Shown one piece after another: positions 332 through 18,324 of a stretch of DNA of 18,324 nt (position 1 is the first letter of the stretch; each line of letters starts with the position of its first letter). The notes beneath the pieces were generated by a model that had not been told where the DNA came from, ran no database searches, and saw nothing but the letters and a program-made list of their open reading frames with translations. Source of the stretch: a virus (lineage: Duplodnaviria > Heunggongvirae > Uroviricota > Caudoviricetes); IMG/VR virus record IMGVR_UViG_2606217174_000014; one strand, 5' to 3'. Position numbers and translations under genes: made by a program.

Positions 332-357
332 ATAACTTTTAGTAAATAATTGGCGTA

Positions 358-2329: not shown

Positions 2330-2418
2330 AAACGTCCCCGTTTAGCGCAGAAGTCACCGGAGTTGTTCAGGCTCCGATGACATGATTATGGCGAGTTGAT
2401 TATCGCAAATCAAAGGTT

Positions 2419-3560: not shown

Positions 3561-3671
3561 TGGCAGTCTCTATAGTAAAACCATAGCTCAGGACGCTTCG
3601 TTCAGGATAGATAATTTTAATGTACTTACCTAACTTTCTTACTATAGCACGGTTGAAAAAGTGATTATTAC

Positions 3672-5198
3672 TCAAAAATAAACCTCACCATCAACCATAT
3701 ATTTGAGAGTACTTATCGCCTGCTGGGCGGATATTGTTTTCATTAAAGGATAGTGTTTAAAAACAATGCCATTCATAAAATAGATATCACAGGTTTTATT
3801 ATCTGTATTGATTATGATTTTTTCGAATGTTTTATAGGCAAGTGTACGACATAGCTCTCGCCCATTTTTACTGGTTAAGTCAATAGCATGAAAATCACCA
3901 AGTGAACTCACCGCTTTACTCTTCAAAGTTTTTAATGATACAGAAGCCCTTCGTAATTCCTTATCTAATACTCTGATTTTTTCTGCTATAGCGGTAACTT
4001 CAGGCGCAACAGATAATGCAGCAATTAAATTATTAATTTTCATCTGGAGCTCAATAATTTTCAACTCTAAAGTTTCATTAGCATCTTTCTTGTTTTCAAC
4101 TGGTTGGATTTTACTACAATTAAAAAGCAACTCATTAATGATATTATAATCAACCAAATCTCTCTTTATTGATGGCCTGTCACATCGATGCAGTCTTCTC
4201 ATCGGACAAACATAATAGCCATGCAAACTTCTAGATACCGCATGAACAATCATGGTATTACCACAAGCCTCGCACTTCATAACTGTTCGAAGTAGATTTA
4301 TCAACATAGGATTTTTGCTACTATTGCTAATACCAAAAGGTGCCAACCGAATTTCCTGTACAGCGTAAAACAAATCATCTGATATGACTCTGGGATAATA
4401 GCCAGCGATTTCACTTATTCCTTTACCTCTTGCACGATATGAAGGTACGCATATACCTATCAGAGCTTTATTCGCTAATAATTTTTCAATTACAGAAGGT
4501 CCCCATGCACTTTCTTTTCCTGAGAAATTCTTTACAGCATGATCATTTAAATACTTGGCTATTGCATTCAATGAGCGCCTTTCCATCCTGAGTTTAAAAA
4601 TTAGCTCAATAGTTTTCACCCTGTCGGGGTCTGGAACAAAAGCCGTTCTTTTGTCATCTAAGGAGAGCCATCTCGGACAAGACGCCGTCATAATCGTACC
4701 TGATTCCAGTGCATCCTGCCGTTTTTTCTTCCATGATAATTTAACCCGACTTGACTTTATCTCGCTTTCTTCATTTGCCCTTTGTGCTATAAGTATGGCT
4801 TTTATTAATGAATATGGCTCATTCAAAGAGTCAATATTATAGACTGTATTGTCGCAAAGAGTTATAACATCAATACCGTGATTCAAAATCAATTTCAGAC
4901 GTTCAATCGCTTCACCGACTTTTTCTCTTGAAAGTCTGTCCAGACTTTCAACTAACAATGTAGTTCCTGGCAATATATAACCATGCTCTATAGCATCTAA
5001 AAATTCCGAAAAAGCTCCTGATTGTGCATGCTTTCCTTTGAATGCACTTAATCCTAAATCTTCATATGTTATGGTATCAAGATAATAATCACTATTTACC
5101 TTTAACCATTCAGCAATAAGTCTTCTCTGTCGGTTTAATGAGTCGCCAGACATCTGACCTGGTGATGAAAATCGCATATATGCTATGGCTTTTTTCAT
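3672..5198 (-). CDS. ybcK: Large serine recombinase (DLP12 YbcK-like)
   Basis: 508 aa. N-terminal resolvase catalytic motif (AYMRFSSPGQ with the serine nucleophile, then SLNRQ), followed by a recombinase domain, Cys clusters (CEACGN...C...C) and a C-terminal coiled-coil region. AGGTG Shine-Dalgarno. Confidence 0.85.
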   Translation of the reverse strand: MKKAIAYMRFSSPGQMSGDSLNRQRRLIAEWLKVNSDYYLDTITYEDLGLSAFKGKHAQSGAFSEFLDAIEHGYILPGTTLLVESLDRLSREKVGEAIERLKLILNHGIDVITLCDNTVYNIDSLNEPYSLIKAILIAQRANEESEIKSSRVKLSWKKKRQDALESGTIMTASCPRWLSLDDKRTAFVPDPDRVKTIELIFKLRMERRSLNAIAKYLNDHAVKNFSGKESAWGPSVIEKLLANKALIGICVPSYRARGKGISEIAGYYPRVISDDLFYAVQEIRLAPFGISNSSKNPMLINLLRTVMKCEACGNTMIVHAVSRSLHGYYVCPMRRLHRCDRPSIKRDLVDYNIINELLFNCSKIQPVENKKDANETLELKIIELQMKINNLIAALSVAPEVTAIAEKIRVLDKELRRASVSLKTLKSKAVSSLGDFHAIDLTSKNGRELCRTLAYKTFEKIIINTDNKTCDIYFMNGIVFKHYPLMKTISAQQAISTLKYMVDGEVYF

Positions 5199-5453
5199 GG
5201 TGACACCTGCTAACGTATGCTTTTATAAACCTTAGTGGTGGGATATAATTTTGTTTAATTTTTATTTAAAAAGACAATTAAGGTCACATTATCTTGAATA
5301 TACAACAATAATCGTATTGCAATTTTCTTACGCCATAATCTTGAAAGCACAAAAGAATACATAAAAAAATAAAGACATTAACAAAAAGCATAAAACGAGG
5401 CTCATATAAATATAAGAGCCTCCATATTTTAGTCGTTTAGAAACAAATTATTT

Positions 5454-5786
5454 TTAATGTGGTGTGCTTCGTGACAATAAATTAATAACCAACACACCGG
5501 CACAAATCAACATCATGCCTATAATGGCTGGCAGGTCCAGCCGTTGGCCGAAAAGTCCCCATGACAGTAAGCTAATCAGGACAATACCGACTCCTGACCA
5601 GATAGCATAAGCAATCCCTGTAGGAATATAAGCCAGCGTCTGAGCTAATAACCAGAATGATGCACAATAACAAATAATTGTACCAACAGATGGCCATAAC
5701 CGTGTAAAACCTTCTGAAAACTTCATTAAGGTTGTACCAATGACCTCTGCAAGTATTGCACCACCAAGATAAATATAAGGGTTCAT
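5454..5786 (-). CDS. emrE: SMR-family multidrug efflux transporter EmrE
   Basis: ORF 5454..5840; the internal start MNPYIYLGGAILAEVIGTTLMKFSEGFTRLWPSVG... gives a 110-aa four-helix SMR protein matching EmrE. Confidence 0.9.
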   Translation of the reverse strand: MNPYIYLGGAILAEVIGTTLMKFSEGFTRLWPSVGTIICYCASFWLLAQTLAYIPTGIAYAIWSGVGIVLISLLSWGLFGQRLDLPAIIGMMLICAGVLVINLLSRSTPH

Positions 5787-5853
5787 AGAATATTCTTTCC
5801 TGTTCAAACTGGAGAGAATTGTACTACAGTTTGAACTCAACTCACCTGTTTCA

Positions 5854-6156
5854 TCATTGTGTACCCATTGATGTTCTTTTATATACCCTCAATACCCGTT
5901 TCATCGCGGCACTCTGGCGACACTCCTTAAAAATCAGATTCGTGCTCACCTTTCCTTCCCGTTCTTCTCTGGTAGCAAACCGGTAATACACCGTTCGCCA
6001 GACCTTACCTTCGATAGCCAGAAGACCTGCCCGTGCCATTTTAGCCGCAGCCTGATTTATGCTGGTTACCGTTGCGCCTGTTACCGCGGCAACGTCCTGC
6101 GCACAGAATTTCTTATGAGTCCCCAGGTAATGAATAATTGCCTCTTTGCCCGTCAT
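5854..6156 (-). CDS. ren: Ren-like protein
   Basis: MTGKEAIIHYLGTH...ATVTSINQAAAKMARAG...VWRTVYYRFATREEREGK... matches lambda Ren as recalled; the C-terminus diverges. The start overlaps the end of P (ATGA). Confidence 0.8.
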   Translation of the reverse strand: MTGKEAIIHYLGTHKKFCAQDVAAVTGATVTSINQAAAKMARAGLLAIEGKVWRTVYYRFATREEREGKVSTNLIFKECRQSAAMKRVLRVYKRTSMGTQ

Positions 6157-6853
6157 ACCCTTGCTCCTTTCAGCCCAAACTTAGCTTTGATTTCTGCGAT
6201 CTTCGCCAGAGCCTGTGCACGATTTAGAGGTCTACCGCCCATGACAGGAAGTTGTTTTACTGGTTCAGGTATAGCCTCACCACGGTTAATTCGTGCGGTC
6301 ATACAGGACAGTTCATCGGCAGCCTTGCGCCGTAATTCCGCGTCAGTCACGCATTGGCCCGCATGTTCTGATACAGGTTGGTAACCAGCCAGTAGTGCGC
6401 GTTTGATTTCCACGGATAAGACTCTGCATCCGGATACAGCCCGCGCTTCCGGCAATACTCGTAAACCATATCAACCAGCTCGCTGGCGTTTGGCAGCCCG
6501 GCGGTAACGGATGCTTCTTCCCGGCACCAGGCGACAAACTGCCCGGGTGATGGCAGGAATGGTCGATTCTGCCGACGGGCTACGCGCATTCCAGCGTTAA
6601 CCTGTTCCATTGTGGTGATCCCGTTTTCCCGAAAAGCCAGCACCCACTGGCGGCGGATTTCGTTCAGTTCATTCTGGTCACGGTTAGCCAGGCTCGCCGG
6701 GAAAGTTGCCAGTAACTGGCTGAACACACCGTTGATGATCTGCGCTACCTGCTGTACCTGCGGCTTTTCGTCGTACTGTTCCGGCATGTTGTTGGCGATC
6801 CGACGCATCTGCTCACGGTCAAAGTTAACCATCTGTGCGGCGATGTTTTTCAT
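6153..6853 (-). pseudogene. P: Replication protein P (DnaB loader), disrupted by a 1-nt frameshift near 6347
   Basis: The 168-aa ORF 6347..6853 (MKNIAAQMVNFDREQMRRIANN...NMRANA*) and the 100-aa ORF 6153..6455 (...VTDAELRRKAADEL...KIAEIKAKFGLKGARV) together form one lambda-P-like protein but sit in different frames. Confidence 0.8.
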
Positions 6854-7779
6854 AAATCCACCCCGTAAATCCAGTCAGTGTTTGTCAGGTCGAGTTTTGG
6901 TTTGCTGGCTATCATGCCTGCCTGTTGCTTGTTACGGTTGATTTCGAGTTGGGTCCACTTGTCGCGGAGTTTGGCCGGACTTAGCACGTTACCGGACCAG
7001 AAGTTGTCCTGGCATGCCCAGCGGAAAAGCACGCACATGTCGCGGTGGTTACGTCCGTCACGTTCACGCATCAGGCGGATATCGTTAGCCCACCCTGCAA
7101 AATTCGGTTTTCTGGCTGATGGTGCGATGGTCTTCACCATGTCAAACATCCACTCTGCGGCGGTCAGGTCTTCTGCTGTCCCCCACTTGCTGCCGCTCTG
7201 AATTGCAGCATCTGGTTTCACCACAGGAAGATCGTTTTCTGGTTGGTCAGAGGATTCGCCAGAATTCTCGGACGAAAAAGGTTTTATATTGTCTTTTGTT
7301 AGTTTGTCTTTTGTGTTTACCTGATTCGGGTAAACGCCTTTACCTGATTTGGGTAAACTTTTCTTACCTGATTCAGGTAAATTTACCTCTTTCAGGTAAA
7401 CTTTATTTTTCTTACCTGATTCGGGTAATGTTGACCATTCACTGACCACATTATTAATACCGATATTCCGCCCGCTCTGAATCAAAATCCCACGCTTTAC
7501 CAGAACACTTTTTGCAGCAGAACACTTGTGCGGTAATATCCCGGTCAATCCGGACAGTTGCTCGTTGCTCACCCAATCCAGTTTTTTATTAAAGCCATAT
7601 GTTTTGCGCATGACAGCCAGGAAGACCAGAAGCTGGTGCTGTGTTAATCCGGCCAGCATCACAGCTTCCAGCAACTCATTTGCAATGCGCGTATAACCAT
7701 CATCGAGATCTGCCACGCGCGGCTCCTTTTGTGCCGCATCCGGCACTGGAAAATTGAATATCTCAGCAGTGTTTGCCAT
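6850..7779 (-). CDS. O: Replication initiator O
   Basis: ORF 6850..7869; the probable start is MANTAEIFNF... at 7779 (compare lambda O MTNTAKILNF). ADLDDGY and LLVFLAVMRKTYG motifs; the gene contains the iterons. Confidence 0.85.
   Translation of the reverse strand: MANTAEIFNFPVPDAAQKEPRVADLDDGYTRIANELLEAVMLAGLTQHQLLVFLAVMRKTYGFNKKLDWVSNEQLSGLTGILPHKCSAAKSVLVKRGILIQSGRNIGINNVVSEWSTLPESGKKNKVYLKEVNLPESGKKSLPKSGKGVYPNQVNTKDKLTKDNIKPFSSENSGESSDQPENDLPVVKPDAAIQSGSKWGTAEDLTAAEWMFDMVKTIAPSARKPNFAGWANDIRLMRERDGRNHRDMCVLFRWACQDNFWSGNVLSPAKLRDKWTQLEINRNKQQAGMIASKPKLDLTNTDWIYGVDL
7318..7430. repeat. Replication origin iterons (five ~18-bp direct repeats, tacctgattcgggtaaac-like) inside the O gene
   Basis: Repeats at about 7318, 7341, 7366, 7384 and 7413, with an AT-rich tract (7261-7310) on the O-distal side, as at ori-lambda. 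Confidence 0.8.
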
Positions 7780-7865
7780 AATTCCTCCCGCAATGAGTGT
7801 GTTACGATTTGCACCTGAAAGTCGGTTCTGTTCCAGCAGACCGGCTTTCGCCATTTCTGAACCTG

Positions 7866-8405
7866 TCATATCGCCCCCAGCATGGTAGTAACCATCGCCA
7901 TCAATGGACCAGCCAGATCTGGGTCCACACGAAACATCGATACAATACCTTCACTAATTTCCTTCAGTTTCTGGTGGCGTGGTGCGTTGAGAATGACAGC
8001 CTGTTTTGCCTCACTGAGTTCCTTTTCCATTTCAGCCAACCTGGCCATGAAGCTATCCTGCTCAACCAGGTAACCGCGATATTCCAGCGGTAGTACCGCC
8101 AGAATTGCCGGGGTCAGTTCACGCACGTTATTTCGGTATTTTTCAGAATCGAATTTGTTATCGAGGAAGCGGAACAGCTTCTGGCGTGCACGGCTGACAT
8201 CATCAGGGAAATCGATGGTGCCGCCGCCCTGCTCCCGATACTCATTCACAATGAGTGTGGCAACGACATCCTGATTATCTACAGCCGACCAGGCGCGGAC
8301 GGCATCACGGATTTTTTCGTGGCCTGGCACCTGTTTTGTTTGAGAACGATTTATCACCGCAGTCGGGCTAAATCCGCTAGTCTGTTGGTATGGAAGTGGT
8401 TGCAT
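7866..8405 (-). CDS. Early regulatory protein in the cII position (YdaT-like, 179 aa)
   Basis: Clean ORF with an AAGGAG Shine-Dalgarno immediately downstream of cro. Family assignment is from position and general resemblance only. Confidence 0.6.
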   Translation of the reverse strand: MQPLPYQQTSGFSPTAVINRSQTKQVPGHEKIRDAVRAWSAVDNQDVVATLIVNEYREQGGGTIDFPDDVSRARQKLFRFLDNKFDSEKYRNNVRELTPAILAVLPLEYRGYLVEQDSFMARLAEMEKELSEAKQAVILNAPRHQKLKEISEGIVSMFRVDPDLAGPLMAMVTTMLGAI

Positions 8406-8474
8406 AATTGACTCCTTTAGTTTGAATTGACTGTTAAGTTGATTGCTTATTGTTAAAGAGCGTGAAATGGAAAT

Positions 8475-8705
8475 TTAAGCTGCGTTCTTTTCGGTGTGTG
8501 GAAACAACTTCGGAAGATCCGGGCGAATCTGGTATGCCTTCACTACTCCACCAGTAGCCGTAACAATGCTGCCGACATGTTCAGGGGATACCTTTGCTTT
8601 GTTGTGAAGCCACTTATAGACGGCCTGCTGTGAAACTTCGCAAGCAGCGCCCAGTTTCTTTTGTGAACCAACGATATTGATCGCTGTTTTGATAGCTGGG
8701 TTCAT
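8475..8705 (-). CDS. cro: Cro-like HTH repressor (YdaS family)
   Basis: 76 aa, HTH ...AACEVSQQAVYKWLHN..., C-terminal TGG.V....IRPDL pattern, GGAGG Shine-Dalgarno, divergent from cI. Confidence 0.8.
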   Translation of the reverse strand: MNPAIKTAINIVGSQKKLGAACEVSQQAVYKWLHNKAKVSPEHVGSIVTATGGVVKAYQIRPDLPKLFPHTEKNAA

Positions 8706-8809
8706 AACAACCTCCGTGGTTAATTTGAATCAAGATTAAAACTATGGTTGTTTTTAGTCAACAACCATTTTCGTTTGATGGAATAAAACCTTGGTTGTAC
8801 ATTTGGACT
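8706..8809. promoter_or_regulatory. oR/pR/pRM divergent immunity control region
   Basis: Palindrome ATGGTTGTT-n7-AACAACCAT (8744-8768) plus further GGTTG/CAACC motifs. Minus-strand pR: -35 TTGACT (8761..8756) and -10 TAATCT (8738..8733). Plus-strand pRM-like promoter: -35 TTGATG (8775-8780), 17-bp spacer, -10 TACATT (8798-8803), placing the transcript start at the A of the cI ATG. Confidence 0.6.
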
Positions 8810-9499
8810 ATGAAAACAACACTCTCAGAAAGACTTAAAGAAGCCAGATTAGCGCGAGGCCTTACACAAAAGGCGCTTGGGGATTTGGTCGGGGTTAGCC
8901 AGGCTGCTATTCAGAAAATCGAAACAGGGAAAGCTAATCAAACAACTAAAATCGTGGAGATCGCGAACGCTTTGGGTGTGCGCGCAGAATGGTTATCTTC
9001 TGGCGTTGGAAATATGTCAGACAGTACAGTGCAACCAATACAATCAACTGTCAGCCATTCCAAATACTTCAAGATTGACGTTCTTGATATAGAAGTCAGT
9101 GCTGGGCCGGGAGTCATCAACCGTGAGTTTGTAGAAGTTCTACGCTCGGTTGAGTACTCGTTTGACGATGCTCGTCACATGTTCGATGGTAGGAAGGCGG
9201 AAAATATCCGCATCATTAACGTGCGTGGTGACAGCATGTCAGGAACGATCGAACCAGGTGATCTGCTGTTCGTTGATATCACAGTTAAATCTTTCGACGG
9301 TGATGGTATCTATGCGTTTCTGTACGACGACACAGCCCATGTAAAGCGCCTGCAAATGATGAAGGATAAGCTGCTGGTCATCTCTGATAACAAAAGCTAC
9401 TCACCGTGGGACCCGATCGAGAAAGACGAGATGAACCGGGTGTTCATCTTCGGTAAGGTTATTGGGAGCATGCCGCAGACATATAGGAAGCATGGGTAG
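8810..9499 (+). CDS. cI: CI-type prophage repressor (HTH plus LexA/S24-like autocleavage domain)
   Basis: MKTTLSERLKEARLARGLTQKALGDLVGVSQAAIQKIETGK... followed by a C-terminal region with GDSM (catalytic Ser) and a downstream Lys. ORF-track start 8744 rejected because it would overlap the operators. Confidence 0.85.
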   Translation: MKTTLSERLKEARLARGLTQKALGDLVGVSQAAIQKIETGKANQTTKIVEIANALGVRAEWLSSGVGNMSDSTVQPIQSTVSHSKYFKIDVLDIEVSAGPGVINREFVEVLRSVEYSFDDARHMFDGRKAENIRIINVRGDSMSGTIEPGDLLFVDITVKSFDGDGIYAFLYDDTAHVKRLQMMKDKLLVISDNKSYSPWDPIEKDEMNRVFIFGKVIGSMPQTYRKHG

Positions 9500-9620
9500 T
9501 ACCAATTAAAAATTATCAACTGGGCATTGTGCTCATTCAGTAAAGAACTAATTCCTATCTTTGCTCTAGGTAGTAATATTAAGCCACCGCAATAATATCT
9601 TTACCTAACGGCGTAAGAAT

Positions 9621-9647
9621 CCCGGTCACCGTGCCGGGTTTTCTTTT
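9621..9647 (+). terminator. Rho-independent terminator downstream of cI
   Basis: CCCGG-tcaccgtg-CCGGG stem-loop followed by TTTTCTTTT. Confidence 0.65.
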
Positions 9648-9740
9648 GCCCTCCCCTCATCACACACACCGTTAAAAAAACCACCATAACCTCGCTTCAG
9701 TTATCGCTATGTGATTCAAGTCACAAAATAAATCCATCCT

Positions 9741-9817
9741 AAATACAACCAGTTATATCTAAAACAACCAATAAAACAACTTTTGTTGTTGACGATAAAA
9801 CAACTATAGTTTTAAAT
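9741..9817 (+). promoter_or_regulatory. oL/pL region
   Basis: Repeated AACAAC half-sites including the perfect palindrome AACAAC-tttt-GTTGTT (9775-9790), which overlaps the -35 TTGACG (9789-9794); 17-bp spacer; -10 TTAAAT (9812-9817). The 19-bp core aaaacaac[t/c]atagttttaa is shared with pR. Confidence 0.6.
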
Positions 9818-9890
9818 AAGTTCATCGCAACAACACAACGATACGGCAACTACCTGATTCACCGTTGCGATGACCGCTTAGATCCGCAGT

Positions 9891-10301
9891 TTGAATTTCA
9901 GCAGGCTTCGGGGAGTGCGAGGGGTGAAACGGACGCGTGAACGTCGGTGTGACCAGCTGAAATTAACTCAACATTTCATACCTCAGTCGCTTCAACGAGG
10001 CGGCTTAGTTATGACAACCGGCGGCCATCCACCGCCTGAATATGCGCAGAAGTCTCTATATGTTCAGCAGCCCAGCTTACGGGCAGGAGTTTTTATGGTT
10101 CATCAACATTACGGAACACAGACCGTTAATCGCGGCGCGGTCATGCCAGGAATGCTGGTCAAACACAAAGATGGTACCTGGACTGCATCAGCTAATTTAC
10201 GCGGACGGCTTTATCTGCATCGCGGCATCGAGCGCACTTATACCAGTGATTTGCTCGTGGAAGTTTTTCTCGACGGACGCGGTAACGGCCTGAATCACTA
10301 A
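9891..10301 (+). CDS. Hypothetical protein in the N position (136 aa from 9891, or 96 aa from the ATG at 10011)
   Basis: First ORF downstream of pL. The N-terminus carries an Arg-rich stretch (RLRGVRGVKRTRERR) resembling the arginine-rich motifs of lambdoid N proteins. The 10011 start has a GAGG Shine-Dalgarno; the 9891 start has none. Confidence 0.4.
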   Translation: MNFSRLRGVRGVKRTRERRCDQLKLTQHFIPQSLQRGGLVMTTGGHPPPEYAQKSLYVQQPSLRAGVFMVHQHYGTQTVNRGAVMPGMLVKHKDGTWTASANLRGRLYLHRGIERTYTSDLLVEVFLDGRGNGLNH

Positions 10302-10377
10302 CCCCCCTTTCCTGTTTTCCTAATCAGCCTGGCATTTCGCGGGCGATATTTTCACAGCCATTTTCAGGAGTTCAGCC

Positions 10378-10674
10378 ATGAACGCTTATTACATTCAGGA
10401 TCGTCTTGAGGCTCAGAGCTGGGCGCGTCACTACCAGCAGCTCGCCCGTGAAGAGAAAGAGGCAGAACTGGCAGACGACATGGAAAAAAGCCTGCCCCAG
10501 CACCTGTTTGAATCGCTATGCATCGATCATTTGCAACGCCACGGGGCCAGCAAAAAAGCCATTACCCGTGCGTTTGATGACGATGTTGAGTTTCAGGAGC
10601 GCATGGCAGAACACATCCGGTACATGGTTGAAACCATTGCTCACCACCAGGTTGATATTGATTCAGAGGTATAA
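10378..10674 (+). CDS. gam: Gam, RecBCD inhibitor (98-aa GamS form)
   Basis: [37 protein letters not shown]... matches lambda Gam. Confidence 0.92.
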
Positions 10675-10679
10675 AACGG

Positions 10680-11465
10680 ATGAGTACAGCACTCGCAACG
10701 CTGGCTGGGAAGCTGGCTGAACGTGTCGGCATGGATTCTGTCGACCCACAGGAACTGATCACCACTCTTCGCCAGACGGCATTTAAAGGTGATGCCAGCG
10801 ATGCGCAGTTCATCGCATTGTTGATCGTCGCCAACCAGTACGGCCTTAATCCGTGGACGAAAGAAATTTACGCCTTCCCTGACAAGCAGAACGGCATCGT
10901 TCCGGTGGTGGGCGTTGATGGCTGGTCCCGTATCATCAATGAAAACCAGCAGTTTGATGGCATGGACTTTGAGCAGGACAATGAATCATGTACATGCCGG
11001 ATTTACCGCAAGGACCGTAATCATCCGATCTGCGTTACCGAGTGGATGGATGAATGCCGCCGCGAACCATTCAAAACCCGCGAAGGCAGAGAAATCACGG
11101 GGCCGTGGCAGTCGCATCCCAAACGGATGTTACGGCATAAAGCCATGATTCAGTGTGCCCGTCTCGCCTTCGGATTTGCTGGTATCTATGACAAGGATGA
11201 AGCCGAGCGCATTGTCGAAAATACCGCATACACTGCAGAACGTCAGCCGGAACGCGACATCACTCCGGTTAACGATGAAACCATGCAGGAGATTAACACT
11301 CTGCTGATCGCCCTGGATAAAACATGGGATGACGACTTATTGCCGCTCTGTTCCCAGATATTTCGCCGCGACATTCGCGCATCGTCAGAACTGACACAGG
11401 CCGAAGCAGTGAAAGCTCTTGGATTCCTGAAACAGAAAGCCACTGAGCAGAAGGTGGCAGCATGA
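10680..11465 (+). CDS. bet: Bet (Red-beta single-strand annealing protein)
   Basis: 261-aa translation [38 protein letters not shown]... matches lambda Bet. Confidence 0.95.
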
Positions 11466-12142
11466 CACCGGACATTATCCTGCAGCGTACCGGGATCGAC
11501 GTGAGAGCTGTCGAACAGGGGGATGATGCATGGCACAAATTACGGCTCGGCGTCATCACCGCTTCAGAAGTTCACAACGTGATAGCAAAGCCCCGCTCAG
11601 GAAAGAAGTGGCCTGACATGAAAATGTCCTACTTCCACACCCTGCTGGCTGAGGTTTGCACCGGTGTGGCTCCGGAAGTTAATGCTAAGGCGCTGGCCTG
11701 GGGAAAACAGTACGAGAACGACGCCAGAACCCTGTTTGAATTCACTTCCGGCGTGAATATTACTGAATCCCCGATCATCTATCGCGACGAAAATATGCGC
11801 ACCGCCTGCTCTCCCGATGGTTTATGCAGTGACGGCAACGGCCTTGAACTGAAATGCCCGTTTACCTCCCGGGATTTCATGAAATTCCGGCTCGGTGGTT
11901 TCGAGGCAATAAAATCGGCTTACATGGCCCAGGTGCAGTACAGCATGTGGGTGACGCGAAAAGATGCCTGGTACTTTGCCAACTATGACCCGCGCATGAA
12001 GCGTGAAGGCCTGCATTATGTCGTGATTGAGCGGAATGAAAAGTACATGGCGAGTTTTGACGAGATGGTGCCGGAGTTCATCGAAAAAATGGACGAGGCA
12101 CTGGCTGAAATTGGTTTTGTATTTGGGGAGCAATGGCGATGA
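11462..12142 (+). CDS. exo: Exo (lambda exonuclease, Red-alpha)
   Basis: 226-aa translation [40 protein letters not shown]... matches lambda Exo; the start overlaps the bet stop. Confidence 0.95.
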
Positions 12143-12321
12143 CGCATCCTCACGATAATATCCGGGTAGGCGCGATCACTTTCGTCTACTCCGTTACAAA
12201 GCGAGGCTGGGGATTTCCCAGCCTTTCTGTTATCCAAAATCCACTGAAAGCCCAGCGGCTGGCTGAGGAGATAAATAATAAACGAGGGGCTGTATGCACA
12301 AAGCATCTCCCGTTGAGTTAA
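12133..12321 (+). CDS. Lambda orf60a-like small protein
   Basis: 62 aa, [21 protein letters not shown]...; sits directly downstream of exo as in lambda. Confidence 0.6.
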
Positions 12322-12485
12322 GAACGAGTATCGAGATGGCACATAGCCTCGCTCAAATTGGAGTCAGGTTTGTGCCAATACCAGTAGAAACAGACGAAGA
12401 ATTTCACACGTTAGCCGCATCCCTTTCACAAAAGCTGGAAATGATGGTGGCGAAAGCAGAAGCAGATGAGAGAGACCAGGTATGA
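12294..12485 (+). CDS. Lambda orf63-like small protein
   Basis: 63 aa, [23 protein letters not shown]...; lambda gene order. Confidence 0.6.
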   Translation: MHKASPVELRTSIEMAHSLAQIGVRFVPIPVETDEEFHTLAASLSQKLEMMVAKAEADERDQV

Positions 12486-12565
12486 CAACCACTGAATGCA
12501 TTTTTCTGGCAGCGGGCTTCATATTCTGTGTGCTTATGCTTGCCGACATGGGACTTGTTCAATGA
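12482..12565 (+). CDS. Small hydrophobic peptide (27 aa, MTTTECIFLAAGFIFCVLMLADMGLVQ)
   Basis: ATGA overlaps at both ends (with the orf63 stop and the next gene's start) suggest translational coupling. Likely a single-pass membrane peptide. Confidence 0.4.
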   Translation: MTTTECIFLAAGFIFCVLMLADMGLVQ

Positions 12566-12777
12566 CACCTCAGCAGGAAAACGCCCTTCGCAGCATTGCC
12601 CGTCAGGCTAATTCTGAAATCAAAAAAGCCAGACAGCAGTTTCCGGATAAAAACGTCGATGACATTTGCCGTAGCGTACTGAAGAAGCACCGCGAAACGG
12701 TAACGCTGATGGGATTCACACCGACTCATTTAAGCCTGGCAATCGGCATGTTAAACGGCGTCTTTAAGGAACGATGA
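12562..12777 (+). CDS. Lambda orf61-region small protein (71 aa)
   Basis: MTPQQENALRSIARQANSEIKKARQQFPDKNVDD...; the ORF-track start at 12496 is less likely than the coupled ATG at 12562. Confidence 0.55.
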   Translation: MTPQQENALRSIARQANSEIKKARQQFPDKNVDDICRSVLKKHRETVTLMGFTPTHLSLAIGMLNGVFKER

Positions 12778-12799
12778 ACATGAAAAGCAAAATCATCAG

Positions 12800-12820
12800 G
12801 GAGCTACAGGCTCCTTTTTT
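12800..12820 (+). terminator. Intrinsic terminator-like hairpin inside the pL operon
   Basis: GGAGC-tacag-GCTCC followed by TTTTTT. Confidence 0.55.
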
Positions 12821-12875
12821 ATTATTCGCATTCACCCTCAAGCGTATTAACCAACAATTCAGGGATTAATGGAAG

Positions 12876-13097
12876 ATGGCAGACATCATTGATTCAGCAT
12901 CAGAAATTGAAGAATTACAGCGCAACACAGCAATAAAAATGCGCCGCCTGAACCACCAGGCTATATCTGCCACTCATTGTTGTGAGTGTGGCGATCCGAT
13001 AGATGAACGAAGACGCCTGGTCGTTCAGGGTTGTCGGACTTGTGCAAGTTGCCAGGAAGATCTGGAGCTTATCAGTAAACAGAGAGGTTCGAAGTGA
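12876..13097 (+). CDS. TraR/DksA-family C4 zinc-finger protein (lambda Orf73-like)
   Basis: 73 aa with CCECGD...x17...CRTCASC, the DksA/TraR zinc-finger pattern. Confidence 0.8.
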   Translation: MADIIDSASEIEELQRNTAIKMRRLNHQAISATHCCECGDPIDERRRLVVQGCRTCASCQEDLELISKQRGSK

Positions 13098-13396
13098 GCG
13101 AAATTAACTCTCAGGCACTGCGTGAAGCGGCAGAGCAGGCAATGCATGACGACTGGGGATTTGACGCAGACCTTTTCCATGAATTGGTAACACCATCGAT
13201 TGTGCTGGAACTGCTGGATGAGCGGGAAAGAAACCAGCAATACATCAAACGCCGCGACCAGGAGAACGAGGAAATTGCGCTAACGGTAGGAAAGCTGCGC
13301 GTTGAGCTGGAAGCAGCAAAATCAAAACTCAACGAGCAGCGTGAATATTACGAAGGTGTTATCTCGGATGGAAGTAAGCGTATTGCTGAACTGTAG
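13094..13396 (+). CDS. Ea22-like protein, apparently C-terminally truncated (100 aa)
   Basis: MSEINSQALREAAEQAMHDDWGFDADLFHELV...; the coiled-coil N-terminal part resembles lambda Ea22 as I recall it. It ends at tandem stops (TAGGCCTAG) where foreign AT-rich DNA begins. Confidence 0.55.
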   Translation: MSEINSQALREAAEQAMHDDWGFDADLFHELVTPSIVLELLDERERNQQYIKRRDQENEEIALTVGKLRVELEAAKSKLNEQREYYEGVISDGSKRIAEL

Positions 13397-13646
13397 GCCT
13401 AGGTTGAGTGTACAAGATTTGCATACGTAAGAGCAAAAGACAAGGGAGAATTGATCAGAGTTATTACCTGCCAACCAACGGGATATTACGCTTACGTACC
13501 ATGTAACTAGGAATCCTTGAAGTGGCAGCCTAACTGTGGATACACTGAAATGGCGATTTGGTAACATGTTTCGCACAAGGCTGTTACTACGCTTAGAGAT
13601 AATCAGTCATGATTAAATGCTTTGTAAAAAGTAAAAGGAAATTACA

Positions 13647-14261
13647 ATGAAAAAATCAACACTAATTTTAGGGCTTACGTTAATTGTCTCATCTCAAATA
13701 CCATCGGCAATGGCAAAAAATGAATCAAAACTTTGGGTTGTTGTTGATCGAACGGAAAGACATACCTGCCCTTCAAGTAAATGTGGAGTGGCTGGGAAAC
13801 TATTTTTCAGGGAAGGCGTAGATTTTCTAGAAAAAAAAGGTGAATGGGTTCGTATAACTGAGCCATATTCAGCCTCATGTGTGGGAGGGGAAAGCGAATA
13901 TATTAAAGAAGGTAATAAATCCTGCACAAGAAAAAACGGAATCGTTAATGGCAAGTTTTCAGAATGGGTTAAACTTAGTGATCTTAGCAGTGAAAGGCCA
14001 TCAGATCCTGCTGAAAATGCGAGCAGAAATGATACCTTAATCAAAGGATCTGATGACTACCGTATATACAAAAAAGAGTTTTCTTCGGCAGCTAGGAAGT
14101 TAATAAGTGAAGGTGTCTGCACGGAGAGCGATTTTAAGGAAGTTGGAGGGTGGATGGCATCAAGCAATAAGGGTGAAAACATCTATTTCACATATTGCGG
14201 AGGAATGACGTTGTCGAACAGAATATATCTAGACGTTAAAAGTGGAAAGACTTTTAGATAA
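13647..14261 (+). CDS. Secreted Cys-rich hypothetical protein (204 aa, Sec signal peptide, predicted periplasmic)
   Basis: N-terminal MKKSTLILGLTLIVSSQIPSAMA|KN (AxA cleavage site, no lipobox); the mature part has 8 Cys; AAGGA Shine-Dalgarno; AT-rich. Confidence 0.7.
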   Translation: MKKSTLILGLTLIVSSQIPSAMAKNESKLWVVVDRTERHTCPSSKCGVAGKLFFREGVDFLEKKGEWVRITEPYSASCVGGESEYIKEGNKSCTRKNGIVNGKFSEWVKLSDLSSERPSDPAENASRNDTLIKGSDDYRIYKKEFSSAARKLISEGVCTESDFKEVGGWMASSNKGENIYFTYCGGMTLSNRIYLDVKSGKTFR

Positions 14262-14554
14262 TATGATATTACCAATGACAGCATTAATTTAATGCCTCCA
14301 TAGAATTATCTCTAGGAAGTAAGTATAAGAAAAGTCCGCACAATGAGCTGCTGCGGGCTTTGTGTTATTCGCCATATTTTATGAAGCAAATACGACACTA
14401 TAGATAATTAAGCGTTACTGGTTGTCGATTCCTCACTCATTCCTGCTGATGGCTGTCTTCTTGTATGTGTCATTGAAGGGTAATATCGCGTAAAAAGATA
14501 CCGGAAGTATCCGCGCCGCCATGATTGTCTTTCTCCTGATGCAGGAAAAGCAGA

Positions 14555-14893
14555 ATGACTAAATCAGCAGCAGAGCGCAAAGCCGATCAGAGAGCCAAGC
14601 AAGCATCATCCGGTATGCGTAAGCTGGAGCTTGTACTTGATGCTCAGGAAATTGAAATGCTGGAGCGTAACTGAGCCACGCGCCGCTTCAGGCGTGCGCC
14701 TTACGAGTTTGGTGAGTACATAGCGTTACTGAGCCGCCAGGATGATGCACGTGTGCGCTGGCGTATAAAATCGATTAGCAGAAAACGTTGCCGTAAGTGC
14801 GGCGAGAGAGTTCCTGTTAATTCATGCCCGTGTAATGGTGACTCACAATACTGGGTGACCAAAGGCTGGCACGAAACAAAATTAATGATATAA
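14555..14893 (+). pseudogene. Zinc-ribbon small-protein gene interrupted by an in-frame TGA (39 aa, stop, 72 aa)
   Basis: Manual translation MTKSAAERKADQRAKQASSGMRKLELVLDAQEIEMLERN*ATRRFRRAPYEFGEYIALLSRQDDARVRWRIKSISRKRCRKCGERVPVNSCPCNGDSQYWVTKGWHETKLMI. One continuous frame with a TGA at 14672-14674. Confidence 0.4.
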
Positions 14894-14921
14894 ATCTCTG
14901 TGACATGTCACGGAGGCGGCA

Positions 14922-15350
14922 ATGAAATTAGACCAGCAATATCTAAAAGATCTACTTATCGCATTCGAAAAAACTTATGGCCCTGACACGATGCTTAGTG
15001 AACTAGAGGATAATGGCTTTAATAGATATGACCAAAATTTTATTTTCCATATGCGATTATTATGTGACTACGAATTAATAGTTAGGGTTGATGGAAAACC
15101 TGGGTTCGGTCATATAATGTCCAACGAGTTAGGGGAAGGTGTTGAATATAGTTGGATCGAAGTACCACTGAGGTTGACAGCAAGAGGGCATGATTTTATT
15201 GCTGACTTACGTCAAAAGGAGGTCTGGCAAGCTATAAAAACAAACTTTAAGGATGAGGGGATTAGTACTCTTATGAGTGTTTCAAAATCACTAGCAAAAG
15301 GCTTTGCAAGAAAAAAAATAAAAGATATTACAGGAATAGATATTGAATAA
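14922..15350 (+). CDS. Hypothetical protein, 142 aa, AT-rich orphan
   Basis: GGAGG Shine-Dalgarno 6 nt upstream of the ATG; followed by an intrinsic terminator; no family recognised. Confidence 0.65.
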   Translation: MKLDQQYLKDLLIAFEKTYGPDTMLSELEDNGFNRYDQNFIFHMRLLCDYELIVRVDGKPGFGHIMSNELGEGVEYSWIEVPLRLTARGHDFIADLRQKEVWQAIKTNFKDEGISTLMSVSKSLAKGFARKKIKDITGIDIE

Positions 15351-15396
15351 TTCTTAGCATAAAGCAACTACTGCCTTTGGTGAAAATTATATCTGA

Positions 15397-15419
15397 ACTC
15401 GCTACGGCGAGTTTTTTTT
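15397..15419 (+). terminator. Rho-independent terminator after the 142-aa gene
   Basis: ACTCGC-tacg-GCGAGT followed by TTTTTTTT. Confidence 0.7.
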
Positions 15420-15459
15420 ATGGAGATGATAAATGCACTTCCGAGTCACAGGTGAATAG

Positions 15460-15600
15460 AATGGAGAACCATTCAACAGAGTTATCGAAGCCGAGAACAT
15501 CAGCGACTGCTATGACCACTGGATGCTGTGGGCGCAGATAGCACATGCAGACGTAACCAATATTCGAATTGAAGAACTGAAAGAACACCAAGCCGCCTGA
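15460..15600 (+). pseudogene. 3-prime gene remnant with no start codon (...GEPFNRVIEAENISDCYDHWMLWAQIAHADVTNIRIEELKEHQAA*)
   Basis: Open frame of about 46 codons bounded upstream by TAG, with no in-frame start near its 5-prime end; it ends inside the terminator upstream of xis. Confidence 0.3.
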
Positions 15601-15613
15601 TGGCGGTTTTTTC
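15591..15613 (+). terminator. Terminator-like hairpin upstream of xis
   Basis: CCGCC-tgat-GGCGG followed by TTTTTT. Confidence 0.6.
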
Positions 15614-15639
15614 TTGCGTGTAATTGCGGAGACTTTGCG

Positions 15640-15858
15640 ATGTACTTGACACTTCAGGAGTGGAACGCTCGCCAGCGACGCCCAAGAAGCCTTGAAACAG
15701 TTCGTCGATGGGTGCGCGAATGCAGGATATTCCCTCCTCCGGTTAAGGATGGAAGAGAATATCTGTTCCACGAATCAGCGGTAAAGGTTGACTTAAATCG
15801 ACCAGTAACAGGTAGCCTTTTGAAGAGGATCAGAAATGGGAAGAAGGCGAAGTCATGA
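15640..15858 (+). CDS. xis: Excisionase Xis
   Basis: 72-aa translation MYLTLQEWNARQRRPRSLETVRRWVRECRIFPPPVKDGREYLFHESAVKVDLNRPVTGSLLKRIRNGKKAKS matches lambda Xis. Confidence 0.95.
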   Translation: MYLTLQEWNARQRRPRSLETVRRWVRECRIFPPPVKDGREYLFHESAVKVDLNRPVTGSLLKRIRNGKKAKS

Positions 15859-16906
15859 GCGCCGGGATTTACCCCCTAACCTTTATATAAGAAACAATGG
15901 ATATTACTGCTACAGGGACCCAAGGACGGGTAAAGAGTTTGGATTAGGCCGAGACAGGCGAATCGCAATCACTGAAGCTATACAGGCCAACATTGAGTTA
16001 TTTTCAGGACACAAACACAAGCCTCTGACAGCGAGAATCAACAGTGATAATTCCGTTACGTTACATTCATGGCTTGATCGCTACGAAAAAATCCTGGCCA
16101 GCAGAGGAATCAAGCAGAAGACACTCATAAATTACATGAGCAAAATTAAAGCAATAAGGAGGGGTCTGCCTGATGCTCCACTTGAAGACATCACCACAAA
16201 AGAAATTGCGGCAATGCTCAATGGATACATAGACGAGGGCAAGGCGGCGTCAGCCAAGTTAATCAGATCAACACTGAGCGATGCATTCCGAGAGGCAATA
16301 GCTGAAGGCCATATAACAACAAACCCTGTCGCTGCCACTCGCGCAGCAAAATCAGAGGTAAGGAGATCAAGACTTACGGCTGACGAATACCTGAAAATTT
16401 ATCAAGCAGCAGAATCATCACCATGTTGGCTCAGACTTGCAATGGAACTGGCTGTTGTTACCGGGCAACGAGTTGGTGATTTATGCGAAATGAAGTGGTC
16501 TGATATCGTAGATGGATATCTTTATGTCGAGCAAAGCAAAACAGGCGTAAAAATTGCCATCCCAACAGTATTGCATGTTGATGCTCTCGGAATATCAATG
16601 AAGGAAACACTTGATAAATGCAAAGAGATTCTTGGCGGAGAAACCATAATTGCATCTACTCGTCGCGAACCGCTTTCATCCGGCACAGTATCAAGGTATT
16701 TTATGCGCGCACGAAAAGCATCAGGTCTTTCCTTCGAAGGGGATCCGCCTACCTTTCACGAGTTGCGCAGTTTGTCTGCAAGACTCTATGAGAAGCAGAT
16801 AAGCGATAAGTTTGCTCAACATCTTCTCGGGCATAAGTCGGACACCATGGCATCACAGTATCGTGATGACAGAGGCAGGGAGTGGGACAAAATTGAAATC
16901 AAATAA
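15836..16906 (+). CDS. int: Tyrosine integrase Int (lambda type)
   Basis: 356-aa translation MGRRRSHERRDLPPNLYIRNNGYYCYRDPRTGKEFGLGRDRR... matches lambda Int; overlaps the end of xis. Confidence 0.95.
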   Translation: MGRRRSHERRDLPPNLYIRNNGYYCYRDPRTGKEFGLGRDRRIAITEAIQANIELFSGHKHKPLTARINSDNSVTLHSWLDRYEKILASRGIKQKTLINYMSKIKAIRRGLPDAPLEDITTKEIAAMLNGYIDEGKAASAKLIRSTLSDAFREAIAEGHITTNPVAATRAAKSEVRRSRLTADEYLKIYQAAESSPCWLRLAMELAVVTGQRVGDLCEMKWSDIVDGYLYVEQSKTGVKIAIPTVLHVDALGISMKETLDKCKEILGGETIIASTRREPLSSGTVSRYFMRARKASGLSFEGDPPTFHELRSLSARLYEKQISDKFAQHLLGHKSDTMASQYRDDRGREWDKIEIK

Positions 16907-16994
16907 TGATTTTATTTTGACTGATAGTGACCTGTTCGTTGCAACAAATTGATAAGCAATGCTTTTTTATAATGCCAACTTAGTATAAAAAAGC
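16907..16994. other. attL: P-prime arm plus 15-bp common core (reverse complement of GCTTTTTTATACTAA at 16980-16994) joined to the bacterial arm
   Basis: Plus-strand ttagtataaaaaagc at 16980-16994, followed by aggcttca (attB flank) and the ybhC promoter region. Confidence 0.85.
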
Positions 16995-17040
16995 AGGCTT
17001 CAACGGATTCATTTTTCTATTTCATAGCCCGGAGCAACCT

Positions 17041-18324
17041 GTGAACACATTTTCAGTTTCCCGTCTGGCGCTGGCATTGGCTTTTGGCGTGACGCTGACC
17101 GCCTGTAGCTCAACCCCGCCCGATCAACGTCCTTCTGATCAAACCGCGCCTGGTACCTCTTCTCGCCCGATTCTGTCGGCAAAAGAAGCGCAGAATTTCG
17201 ATGCTCAACACTATTTTGCATCCCTGACACCAGGTGCTGCAGCGTGGAATCCTTCCCCGATTACCCTGCCTGCGCAACCTGACTTTGTTGTCGGCCCGGC
17301 GGGCACTCAAGGTGTAACGCATACCACGATTCAGGCGGCGGTAGATGCGGCAATTATCAAGCGTACCAACAAGCGCCAGTATATTGCCGTGATGCCTGGT
17401 GAGTATCAGGGAACGGTATATGTCCCTGCCGCTCCGGGTGGAATTACTCTGTACGGTACAGGTGAAAAACCGATTGATGTGAAGATTGGGCTTTCCCTTG
17501 ATGGTGGCATGAGCCCTGCCGACTGGCGTCACGACGTCAACCCGCGCGGCAAATATATGCCAGGTAAACCAGCGTGGTATATGTACGATAGCTGCCAGAG
17601 CAAACGCAGCGACAGTATCGGTGTTCTCTGCTCTGCGGTCTTCTGGTCACAAAACAATGGCCTGCAACTGCAAAATCTGACCATCGAAAACACGCTGGGC
17701 GATAGCGTAGATGCAGGTAACCATCCGGCGGTGGCACTGCGTACTGATGGTGACCAGGTACAGATTAACAACGTTAACATTCTCGGTCGTCAGAACACCT
17801 TCTTTGTCACCAACAGCGGTGTGCAGAACCGTCTGGAAACGAATCGTCAGCCGCGTACGCTGGTGACCAACAGCTACATTGAAGGGGATGTGGATATCGT
17901 TTCTGGTCGCGGCGCAGTGGTGTTCGATAACACCGAATTCCGCGTGGTGAACTCACGTACTCAGCAAGAAGCGTATGTGTTTGCACCGGCTACGCTGTCC
18001 AACATTTACTACGGTTTCCTCGCCGTAAACAGCCGTTTCAATGCTTTCGGTGATGGTGTGGCGCAACTGGGCCGCTCGCTGGATGTTGATGCCAATACCA
18101 ACGGTCAGGTGGTGATCCGTGATAGCGCCATCAACGAAGGTTTTAACACGGCTAAACCGTGGGCCGATGCGGTGATCTCTAATCGTCCGTTTGCGGGTAA
18201 TACCGGCAGCGTAGATGATAACGACGAAATACAGCGCAATCTGAATGACACTAACTACAACCGCATGTGGGAATACAATAACCGCGGCGTGGGTAGTAAA
18301 GTGGTTGCAGAGGCGAAGAAGTAA
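17041..18324 (+). CDS. ybhC: Chromosomal YbhC, pectinesterase-family outer-membrane lipoprotein
   Basis: 427 aa from a GTG start with a GGAG Shine-Dalgarno; lipobox LTAC; matches E. coli YbhC, the gene next to attB-lambda. Confidence 0.9.
   Translation: MNTFSVSRLALALAFGVTLTACSSTPPDQRPSDQTAPGTSSRPILSAKEAQNFDAQHYFASLTPGAAAWNPSPITLPAQPDFVVGPAGTQGVTHTTIQAAVDAAIIKRTNKRQYIAVMPGEYQGTVYVPAAPGGITLYGTGEKPIDVKIGLSLDGGMSPADWRHDVNPRGKYMPGKPAWYMYDSCQSKRSDSIGVLCSAVFWSQNNGLQLQNLTIENTLGDSVDAGNHPAVALRTDGDQVQINNVNILGRQNTFFVTNSGVQNRLETNRQPRTLVTNSYIEGDVDIVSGRGAVVFDNTEFRVVNSRTQQEAYVFAPATLSNIYYGFLAVNSRFNAFGDGVAQLGRSLDVDANTNGQVVIRDSAINEGFNTAKPWADAVISNRPFAGNTGSVDDNDEIQRNLNDTNYNRMWEYNNRGVGSKVVAEAKK

Follow-up and report, generated by a model that had tools for sequence, protein, structure and literature searches.

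Morons of lambdoid phages are self-contained accessory genes of deviating GC content, such as bor and lom of lambda. The exo-xis region of lambda is non-essential and modulates the lysis-lysogeny decision, and its Ea22 protein consists of three domains, of which the C-terminal domain (CTD) differs among phages (PMC7093339; PMC10834534). In lambda, this region has the gene order orf60a-orf63-orf61-orf73-ea22-ea8.5-orf55-xis. The window studied here (i.e., the whole 18,324-nt stretch of DNA analyzed) agrees with lambda in the position, strand, and operon of this region, and the flanking genes are ~97.7% identical. The order int then ybhC places the prophage at attB-lambda. However, the lambda Ea22 CTD and ea8.5 are absent from the window, which has instead 1992 bp of unrelated DNA containing ORF A, a umuD fragment, ORF B, and ORF C (Table 1). 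We consider it likely that this block arose by mosaic replacement within the exo-xis region of a lambda-like prophage that is now decaying, and that its three genes are not one system.

Based on BLASTN, homology to lambda extends up to 13393 and resumes at 15386, such that the block spans 13394-15385 and not 13397-15460 as proposed in the preliminary description. The placement in the variable exo-xis region was right, as the difference from lambda falls exactly there. The terminator and gene "remnant" that had been taken as the end of the block both belong to the lambda backbone. At the block, 762 bp of lambda DNA are missing, namely the ea22 C-terminal domain and ea8.5, and the event was therefore a substitution. 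A repeat search found no flanking repeats or transposon-like ends around the block, and for this reason an IS- or transposon-type insertion was rejected. What had been described as a single insertion is in fact a patchwork of five pieces with separate histories: an ea22-family tail, ORF A, the umuD-like fragment, ORF B, and ORF C. The alignment places one recombination point within ea22, following codon 100, and the other in the spacer between ea8.5 and orf55; recombination at these two sites would have swapped the lambda Ea22 CTD and ea8.5 for the 2-kb patchwork. The low GC content ascribed to the ~2 kb as a whole holds for the block average (40.3% vs. 50.3% in the left flank), ORF A (38.5%), and ORF C (35.2%), with ORF B (49.6%) as the exception. 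A scan of the whole window returned no Rfam matches.

Table 1. Features of the block and its flanks (positions in the window).
Feature	Position	Strand	Description
ea22-like gene, N-terminal and coiled-coil part	13094..13396	+	100 codons; ends at TAG 13394-13396
Remnant of a different ea22-family C-terminal domain	13394..13510	+	in frame; two TAGs inside; frame closes at TAG 13508-13510
ORF A	13647..14261	+	204 aa; signal peptide MKKSTLILGLTLIVSSQIPSAMA followed by K; six Cys; intact
Terminator-like hairpin, then UUUGUGUUAUU	14331..14361	+	downstream of ORF A; -15.9 kcal/mol, z -2.0
umuD-like (peptidase S24) gene fragment	14415..14522 (about)	+	no start codon; TAA inside
ORF B pseudogene	14555..14893	+	112-aa protein; RHH-like N-terminus, Cys-rich zinc ribbon
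Promoter-like pair and palindrome	14866..14911	+	-35 CTGGCA 14866-71, 17-nt spacer, -10 TATAAA 14889-94
ORF C	14922..15350	+	142 aa; DUF2513; winged-helix fold and C-terminal helices; intact
Intrinsic terminator, hairpin and T-run	15395..15414	+	-12.9 kcal/mol, z -4.2; within lambda homology
lambda orf55 homologue	15433..15600	+	ATG 15433; TGG-to-TAG at codon 9 (15457-15459)
xis	15640..15858		Pfam Exc 4e-41

At the left boundary, the ea22-like gene shares 97.8% identity with lambda through codon 100 of ea22, and its product matches Pfam Ead_Ea22 (PF13935; 102.8 bits) over the N-terminal 100 residues. Ending at the TAG after codon 100, the ORF lacks the C-terminal domain that assignment to the lambda-type Ea22 requires, and PGAP marks the gene as "missing C-terminus" in a near-identical prophage (99.92% over window positions 332-18324). 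The tandem stops reported here are present, with a second TAG at 13400-13402 (TAGGCCTAG). When read through these stops, the ea22 frame encodes 138 aa, and reconstructed residues 101-129 match phrog_21749 (3e-8) and phrog_20174 (8e-8). The other allele, found in phage Chlobot and in loci L021 and L025, has GAG and TGG at the two TAG codons, yet carries upstream indels and a stop. The continuation of the ea22 frame to its closing TAG was missed in the preliminary description, as were the umuD-like fragment and the palindrome at 14900-14911.

At the right boundary, the terminator upstream of xis was found as a hairpin with a T-run. The supposed start-less remnant between it and xis is lambda orf55 (homologue NP_597778), which has an ATG start and a premature stop. 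Codon 9 is TGG in both lambda and Chlobot, and W9* in the window; the intact allele matches phrog_676 (1.7e-39), and PGAP marks the gene as "internal stop" in the near-identical prophage. Both orf55 and ea22 are broken in two different ways among alleles. With nonsense codons in ea22, ORF B, and orf55, the prophage in the window is, judging from its sequence, decaying, and only ORF A and ORF C still encode full-length proteins within the block.

The same block is found in phage Chlobot (PP925838.1; 96.3% identity) and in ~130 of the 5426 complete E. coli genomes (at least 80% query coverage). Its gene order is shared at 96-100% identity by Chlobot and RefSeq prophages such as those of TW14425, ATCC 8739, and PK8568, and RefSeq already annotates the block as a hypothetical protein, DUF2513, and pseudogenes. 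Unlike in the window, ORF B and orf55 are intact in Chlobot, PK8568, and two others; compared to the Chlobot-type allele, the window has the ORF B TGA, G80R, and C99Y changes and orf55 W9*. The block is also found at a different att site next to torS, in heavily truncated prophage remnants, and on plasmids, and several genomes have IS elements within or adjoining it. In other phages and outside Escherichia, ORF A, ORF B, and ORF C travel separately.

ORF A was described as a signal-peptide, Cys-rich protein, and its coordinates, signal peptide, and six Cys residues are all borne out. The protein matches phrog_8310 over its full length (E 7.2e-135; residues 1-204 on 1-204 of 204). The six Cys are invariant among 79 homologues, and the family comprises at least 862 clusters at 50% identity. 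Two domains can be recognized, namely an N-terminal SH3b-like domain and a C-terminal alpha/beta domain without a match. For the former, the score against Pfam SH3_3 (PF08239) is 16 bits, below the gathering threshold of 27 that some homologues pass; at the fold level, it superposes on solved SH3b domains. SH3b domains are found as cell-wall-binding domains in lysostaphin, endolysin CBDs, and NlpC/P60 accessory domains. Compared to these proteins, ORF A falls below the Pfam threshold, has no catalytic domain, and carries a C-terminal domain for which PDB searches matched no solved structure. Longer ORF A relatives were scanned with Pfam for an informative fused enzyme, but their additional domains were limited to ankyrin, zinc-ribbon, and further SH3b domains. 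The protein is exported by Sec, is probably disulfide-bonded in the periplasm, and probably binds peptidoglycan through its SH3b domain, as read from the fold alone.

ORF A resembles lambdoid morons in several respects. It is a single gene of low GC content (38.5% vs. ~50%) with its own Shine-Dalgarno sequence and a 3' hairpin, its product is an envelope protein, and the gene occurs alone in unrelated mobile elements. The hairpin was found by folding and missed by the consensus scan; in Chlobot, one G-U pair is replaced by G-C through a U-to-C change (-18.6 kcal/mol). Unlike bor and lom, ORF A has no detected promoter and its protein family is unrelated to Bor and Lom. The promoter scan detected no sigma-70 promoter upstream of ORF A, and its independent expression in the lysogen is only putative. 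Under the mosaic replacement, ORF A would be the piece kept by selection, possibly as a lysogen- or early-expressed envelope protein that acts as a moron-type cell-wall conversion factor.

A conversion or exclusion role of ORF A is possible. In the more specific form of this idea, ORF A alone would be a periplasmic peptidoglycan binder that prevents incoming phages from delivering their genomes or gives protection from muralytic attack. The export signal, the six invariant Cys, and the SH3b fold are consistent with this role, and ORF A, with a dN/dS of ~0.17, stayed intact in 11 of the 11 copies inspected, including minimal prophage remnants, while its neighbours decayed. The gene also stands alone in Pseudomonas, where it adjoins an integrase, and in an accessory slot of an Aeromonas prophage, and another lambdoid phage record is annotated with an LprI-family lysozyme inhibitor that would lie under its match to the ea22-int stretch. 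However, ORF A had no PADLOC match, PDB searches found no resemblance to Sie, Cor, Llp, or lysozyme-inhibitor folds, no promoter was seen, the gene is present in just one of 50,697 phage records, and the function is purely one that we infer. We regard this specific role as possible but unlikely.

It is also unlikely that the whole block is neutral debris of a dying prophage in which ORF A and ORF C are intact merely because little time has passed. This explanation accounts for three or four nonsense-broken genes in 2.3 kb, for the IS insertions and truncations that are common in relatives, and for the DUF2513 gene being frameshifted in one genome. Against it, ORF A differs between alleles by nine synonymous and five to six non-synonymous changes (dN/dS 0.14-0.17, based on only 13-15 substitutions per gene) and is intact in every copy. 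The family and its invariant Cys are furthermore conserved across Pseudomonas, Aeromonas, and metagenomes.

Between ORF A and ORF B lies a short umuD-like fragment. Its match to Peptidase_S24 (E 0.009) is under the cut-off and covers ~35 residues on profile positions 54-87 of 116, which falls short of the complete domain with a Ser-Lys dyad that defines UmuD and peptidase S24 proteins. The Chlobot record labels this fragment "UmuD-like," and PGAP names it "DNA repair protein, incomplete" in five loci (L021, L027-L029, and L231).

ORF B was described as a zinc-ribbon ORF split by TGA, and this stop is confirmed at codon 40 (14672-14674). Together with G80R and C99Y, the window has three changes that all fall on invariant columns of the family alignment, with the TGA replacing the invariant Cys40. 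The intact Chlobot allele matches phrog_536 "transcriptional regulator" (7e-48), whose members are full-length proteins of 112-115 aa with C40, C79, C82, C91, C93, and C99; ORF B in the window does not fit this description. Read-through or recoding of the TGA was rejected because G80R and C99Y hit invariant residues downstream of the stop. ORF B in the window is a pseudogene of this family, and PGAP marks it as "internal stop" in the near-identical prophage. The N-terminus is RHH-like, as suggested by a sub-threshold NCBIfam match to the YbfE family (weak, E 0.007), the PHROG label, and a sequence pattern read by eye. A Pfam scan of 19 ORF B homologues gave only noise, and alignment profiles of ORF B and ORF C found nothing significant against PDB sequences. 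In other phages, ORF B usually lies directly upstream of terS or within the nin region.

ORF C is present as reported, but it is not an orphan. The protein scores above the gathering threshold for Pfam DUF2513 (PF10711; 42.7 vs. 29.6 bits; residues 2-115 on profile 1-100 of 100) and matches phrog_585 (7e-34). DUF2513 is a family without a characterized member. ORF C shares the winged-helix fold with MarR/PadR/TubR-type proteins but differs from them in having no sequence-level relation and in belonging to DUF2513. It may be a small dimeric DNA-binding regulator.

ORF B and ORF C are separated by 28 nt, within which lies a perfect 12-bp palindrome (GTGACATGTCAC). The promoter-like pair ahead of it was found by inspection by eye and was not reported by the promoter scan. 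ORF C could be transcribed from such a promoter in the 3' end of ORF B and be controlled via the palindrome. The palindrome is exact at the ORF B 3' end in loci of E. coli, Cronobacter, Salmonella, and Klebsiella, and in 74 of the 80 ORF B loci that were retrieved independently (all 80 at least 84% identical to the query). It is tightly linked to this 3' end and not to ORF C, and second copies are often found just after terL, which suggests a role unrelated to ORF C. An exact 14-mer scan of viral contigs was uninformative by itself, with roughly hundreds of chance matches expected; because chance matches are abundant, such a scan is informative only once tied to ORF B. Literature searches on DUF2513, the RefSeq protein accessions, and the palindrome found nothing useful.

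These patterns bear on whether ORF B and ORF C act together as a two-gene unit, be it toxin-antitoxin-like or a pair of regulators, in which the RHH protein neutralizes or co-regulates the DUF2513 protein via the palindrome. The gene order and 28-nt spacing are equal in E. coli and Cronobacter at ~60% protein identity, and the palindrome between the genes is perfectly conserved. However, no ORF C follows ORF B in 52 of the 80 loci (two of which end just past ORF B), Serratia and a Klebsiella phage carry the DUF2513 gene but no intact ORF B, and the palindrome goes with ORF B. The obligate co-occurrence expected of type II toxin-antitoxin systems is not seen, and ORF C is intact in genomes with a dead ORF B, such that the two are not a classical antitoxin-toxin pair. 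We therefore judge a two-gene unit of this kind improbable. Under the mosaic replacement, ORF B, its linked palindrome, and ORF C would represent a cassette copied from the slot upstream of terS in other temperate phages.

It is highly improbable that the three genes make up a single module for lysogenic conversion or anti-phage activity. They sit together in the variable exo-xis region and are found together in ~130 E. coli genomes and Chlobot, but this idea is largely refuted by their separate distribution outside Escherichia. Against it are also that ORF B is dead in 7 of 11 copies, with ORF A and ORF C intact, and that the dead umuD fragment lies between ORF A and ORF B. A search against PADLOC-DB v2 defence models with ORF A, intact ORF B, ORF C, and Ea22 gave zero matches at E values up to 0.1. 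With parts that are separable and ORF B a pseudogene, the defence module put forward in the preliminary description is not supported, nor is a defence role of the block. Its statement that the three proteins cannot be named by function stands, as none has a characterized function. As to whether these ORFs are widespread, characterized genes, they belong to established, widespread families (phrog_8310, phrog_536, and phrog_585/DUF2513) that are annotated in RefSeq, but none is characterized. The block is an ordinary variable accessory region composed of established, uncharacterized gene families.

The mosaic replacement offers a caution, in that a low-GC block of unnamed genes resembling a defence island proved to be a patchwork made by recombination, half of it pseudogenes, and already present in RefSeq. 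It also provides two modest leads, namely a conserved exported SH3b protein that is apparently selected even in minimal prophage remnants, and the perfectly conserved 12-bp palindrome, which accompanies a small DNA-binding protein widespread in phages and often brackets terminase genes. A tentative extension, to which we assign a low chance, is that the ORF A family, in which every cluster would pair an SH3b domain with a disulfide-bonded C-terminal domain lacking a solved counterpart, is a lone peptidoglycan-level moron of gamma-proteobacterial prophages and integrative elements, serving in exclusion or as a muralytic shield, and, separately, that the palindrome is a new operator or module-boundary element bracketing terminase genes.

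Three minus-strand ORFs (13322-13576, 13694-14044, and 15418-15771) were treated as spurious because they have no PHROG matches. The ORF at 13322-13576 is annotated in the Chlobot record.

BLASTN comparison with phage lambda gave 97.8% identity up to window position 13393, the exact end of ea22 codon 100, and 97.7% identity again from 15386, 41 nt past the stop codon of lambda ea8.5. These breaks in homology define a foreign block of 1,992 bp, and at this place lambda instead has 762 bp, missing here, that encode the Ea22 C-terminal domain and ea8.5. A repeat search found no direct or inverted repeats flanking the block. The preliminary description had proposed an AT-rich cargo insertion, but the lambda alignment shows a substitution. 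The ORFs and stop codons listed in that description are all present. The low GC content holds for the block mean (40.3%, compared with 50.3% in the left flank), ORF A (38.5%), and ORF C (35.2%), but not for ORF B (49.6%). The terminator and gene remnant placed at the end of the block also exist, but both are located in lambda-homologous DNA. The setting, based on ORF lists, Pfam matches, and the RefSeq annotation of E. coli TW14425 (99.92% identity to window 332-18324), is the end of a lambdoid prophage.

Genes and sequence features of the prophage end, in window coordinates
Feature	Position	Remark
quuD, rusA, ninE, ybcN, ybcK, emrE-type genes	left part of window	
Replication genes, CI-like S24 repressor	after emrE-type genes, left to right	
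kil, gam, bet, exo, orf60a, orf63, orf61-like, orf73 (TraR/DksA), ea22-like, block, orf55, xis, int		+ strand, in this order
Hairpin with T-run	12798-12816	between orf61-like gene and orf73, same strand
Hybrid ea22 frame	13094-13510	
Foreign block	13394-15385	
ORF A	13647-14261	
Hairpin, then U-rich tract	14331-14361	downstream of ORF A
umuD-like fragment	~14415-14522	weak match to middle of peptidase S24 (E 0.009)
ORF B	14555-14893	
Palindrome GTGACATGTCAC	14900-14911	in 28-nt gap between ORFs B and C
ORF C	14922-15350	
Terminator	15395-15414	
orf55 homolog	15433-15600	phrog_676
ybhC	after int	host gene; marks attB-lambda side

The left junction lies inside a hybrid ea22 gene. Ea22 consists of N-terminal, coiled-coil, and C-terminal domains, the last of which varies between phages (PMC10834534, PMC7093339). 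When read past TAG codons at 13394 and 13400, the ea22 frame remains open until the TAG at 13508-13510 (138 codons), and the reconstructed tail matches two PHROG families (3e-8 and 8e-8). The allele shared by phage Chlobot, PK8568, and PSJ-12 has GAG and TGG in place of those two stops; this Chlobot-like ea22 allele has two indels (+1 and -4) and, further upstream, a TAG. The foreign C-terminal domain has thus been inactivated independently in the two alleles. An intact hybrid was seen in none of the 11 copies inspected. At the right end, the remnant previously described as start-less is the lambda orf55 homolog, which has an ATG at 15433 and is instead interrupted at codon 9 (TGG to TAG; W9*). 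A different nonsense codon (E19*) was found in NS-NP030 and PSJ-12, and the gene is intact in Chlobot, PK8568, strain 1409, and ATCC 8739.

The three ORFs do not form one system. They occur apart outside Escherichia, ORFs A and B are separated by a dead gene fragment, most copies have a dead ORF B but keep ORFs A and C, and PADLOC returned no defense match. These findings argue against the suggestion that the block is a three-gene conversion, exclusion, or anti-phage module. PGAP and the Chlobot record both label the separating fragment an incomplete gene, UmuD-like or for DNA repair; in the window it lacks a start codon and contains a stop, and we read it as a scar of earlier recombination. 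A toxin-antitoxin pairing of ORFs B and C was also rejected, since intact copies of ORF C exist without ORF B, and no ORF C adjoins ORF B at 52 of 80 loci. The block is a typical mosaic accessory patch of a decaying lambdoid prophage. Its proteins, which had been left unnamed, belong to established families (phrog_8310, phrog_536, and DUF2513/phrog_585), and their functions are indeed uncharacterized.

ORF A encodes a classical signal peptide (AMA|K) behind a good Shine-Dalgarno sequence, has a confident AlphaFold model (pLDDT 89), and is a member of phrog_8310 (7e-135). Six cysteines are invariant across 79 homologs from Escherichia, Pseudomonas, Aeromonas, and metagenomes, some of which have lipoprotein signals; a full-library profile search extended the family to 862 clusters (50% identity). 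In longer relatives the additional parts are ankyrin repeats or further SH3b domains, never an enzyme domain. The gene is solitary and adjoins an integrase in Pseudomonas, and occupies an accessory prophage slot in Aeromonas. No promoter for ORF A passed the promoter scan. In the downstream hairpin, Chlobot differs from the window by one change, from a G-U to a G-C pair. All 11 inspected copies of ORF A are intact, and the window and Chlobot versions differ by nine synonymous and six non-synonymous changes (dN/dS 0.17). ORF A is the only piece of the block with a signature of retention. An envelope-level role in conversion or exclusion is possible, though unlikely.

The intact ORF B allele is a full-length match to phrog_536 "transcriptional regulator" (7e-48), with homologs in 394 clusters from Enterobacteriaceae prophages. 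Pfam scans assigned no family, and a match to the CopG-type YbfE family was sub-threshold. A strand-helix-helix pattern followed by CxxC...CxC suggests a ribbon-helix-helix domain with a zinc ribbon. Because the window copy has TGA at the invariant Cys40 and changes at two more invariant columns (G80R and C99Y), it is a decaying pseudogene. Seven of the 11 copies have TGA as codon 40, and these fall on two allele backgrounds; the other four are intact.

ORF C matches Pfam DUF2513 above threshold and phrog_585, has 113 homologs in Enterobacterales, and gave a model with pLDDT 92; we found no characterized DUF2513 member in the literature. The Serratia prophages have it in accessory slots near the integrase; in Cronobacter prophages and a Klebsiella phage it lies between the lysis and terminase genes.

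The most unexpected detail, which lies outside the preliminary description, is a perfect 12-bp palindrome linked to ORF B. It is found exactly at the ORF B 3' end in E. coli, Cronobacter, Salmonella, and Klebsiella with diverging flanks, and in 74 of 80 ORF B loci that were collected using only protein patterns. A second exact copy is located 2.26-2.45 kb downstream in 37 of the 80 loci. In L217, the one locus examined, the two copies flank terS (Terminase_2) and a 491-aa ORF without a Pfam match, a putative large terminase subunit gene (terL) from its position and size. In Serratia loci, which lack ORF B, ~35 nt from the 3' end of that gene remain before DUF2513, together with a palindrome bearing one mismatch. 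The palindrome belongs with ORF B, and the cassette of ORF B, palindrome, and ORF C probably reached the exo-xis region as a copy from the terS-upstream slot. We found no literature on this palindrome. A promoter-like CTGGCA (-35) and TATAAA (-10) pair with a 17-nt spacer was read by eye upstream of it and was not reported by the promoter scan. The second copy adjoins a GC-rich hairpin; palindrome positions at other loci are L012:7600, L019:6892, L020:4466, and L217:about 6101.

Public genomes already contain the block in annotated form. Chlobot (PP925838) has the whole interval at 96.3% identity, and at least 80% of it is covered in 130 of 5,426 complete E. coli genomes. ORF A DNA was found in 133 genomes (107 with the Chlobot-like allele and 26 with the window allele), and 11 copies are plasmid-borne. 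Most copies inspected are at attB-lambda; that of PK8568 is beside torS, and others are in prophage stumps reduced to orf60a-int. PGAP labels the genes, in order, as Ea22-like "missing C-terminus", hypothetical protein, hypothetical "internal stop", DUF2513, and hypothetical "internal stop". A separate 43,337-bp replicon record of E. coli SZQ1 (NZ_CP174001.1) has the block at 99.7-99.9% identity and could represent a phage of this lineage in complete, excised or episomal form. A convenient test bed is ATCC 8739 (NC_010468.1, 3141497-3148145), a laboratory strain in common use. It carries the block with IS1 separating ORF A from the ea22 remnant; its ORF A and DUF2513 genes are intact, and ORF B has the same codon 40 TGA as the window.

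Window 1-331 departs from the TW14425 prophage and matches an IS1 region at 91%. IS1 thus adjoins the prophage right after quuD, in the place of an ompC/nmpC-like porin gene found in TW14425, which suggests that the prophage is truncated. The ~540 bp between the CI-like repressor end (9499) and the kil start (near 10042) has no annotated gene; at ~9500-10040, no + strand ORF of at least 40 aa and no N, cIII, or ral homologs were seen. The immunity region belongs to the YdaS/YdaT type rather than to that of lambda. The hairpin upstream of orf73 is a strong intrinsic-terminator-like structure, and transcription past it into the block would need antitermination. DLP12-type cargo is found at 3672-5840, namely, a ybcK recombinase-family gene, an emrE multidrug efflux gene, and ylcJ (frameshifted in the PGAP call on a near-identical genome), in a prophage integrated at attB-lambda rather than argU.
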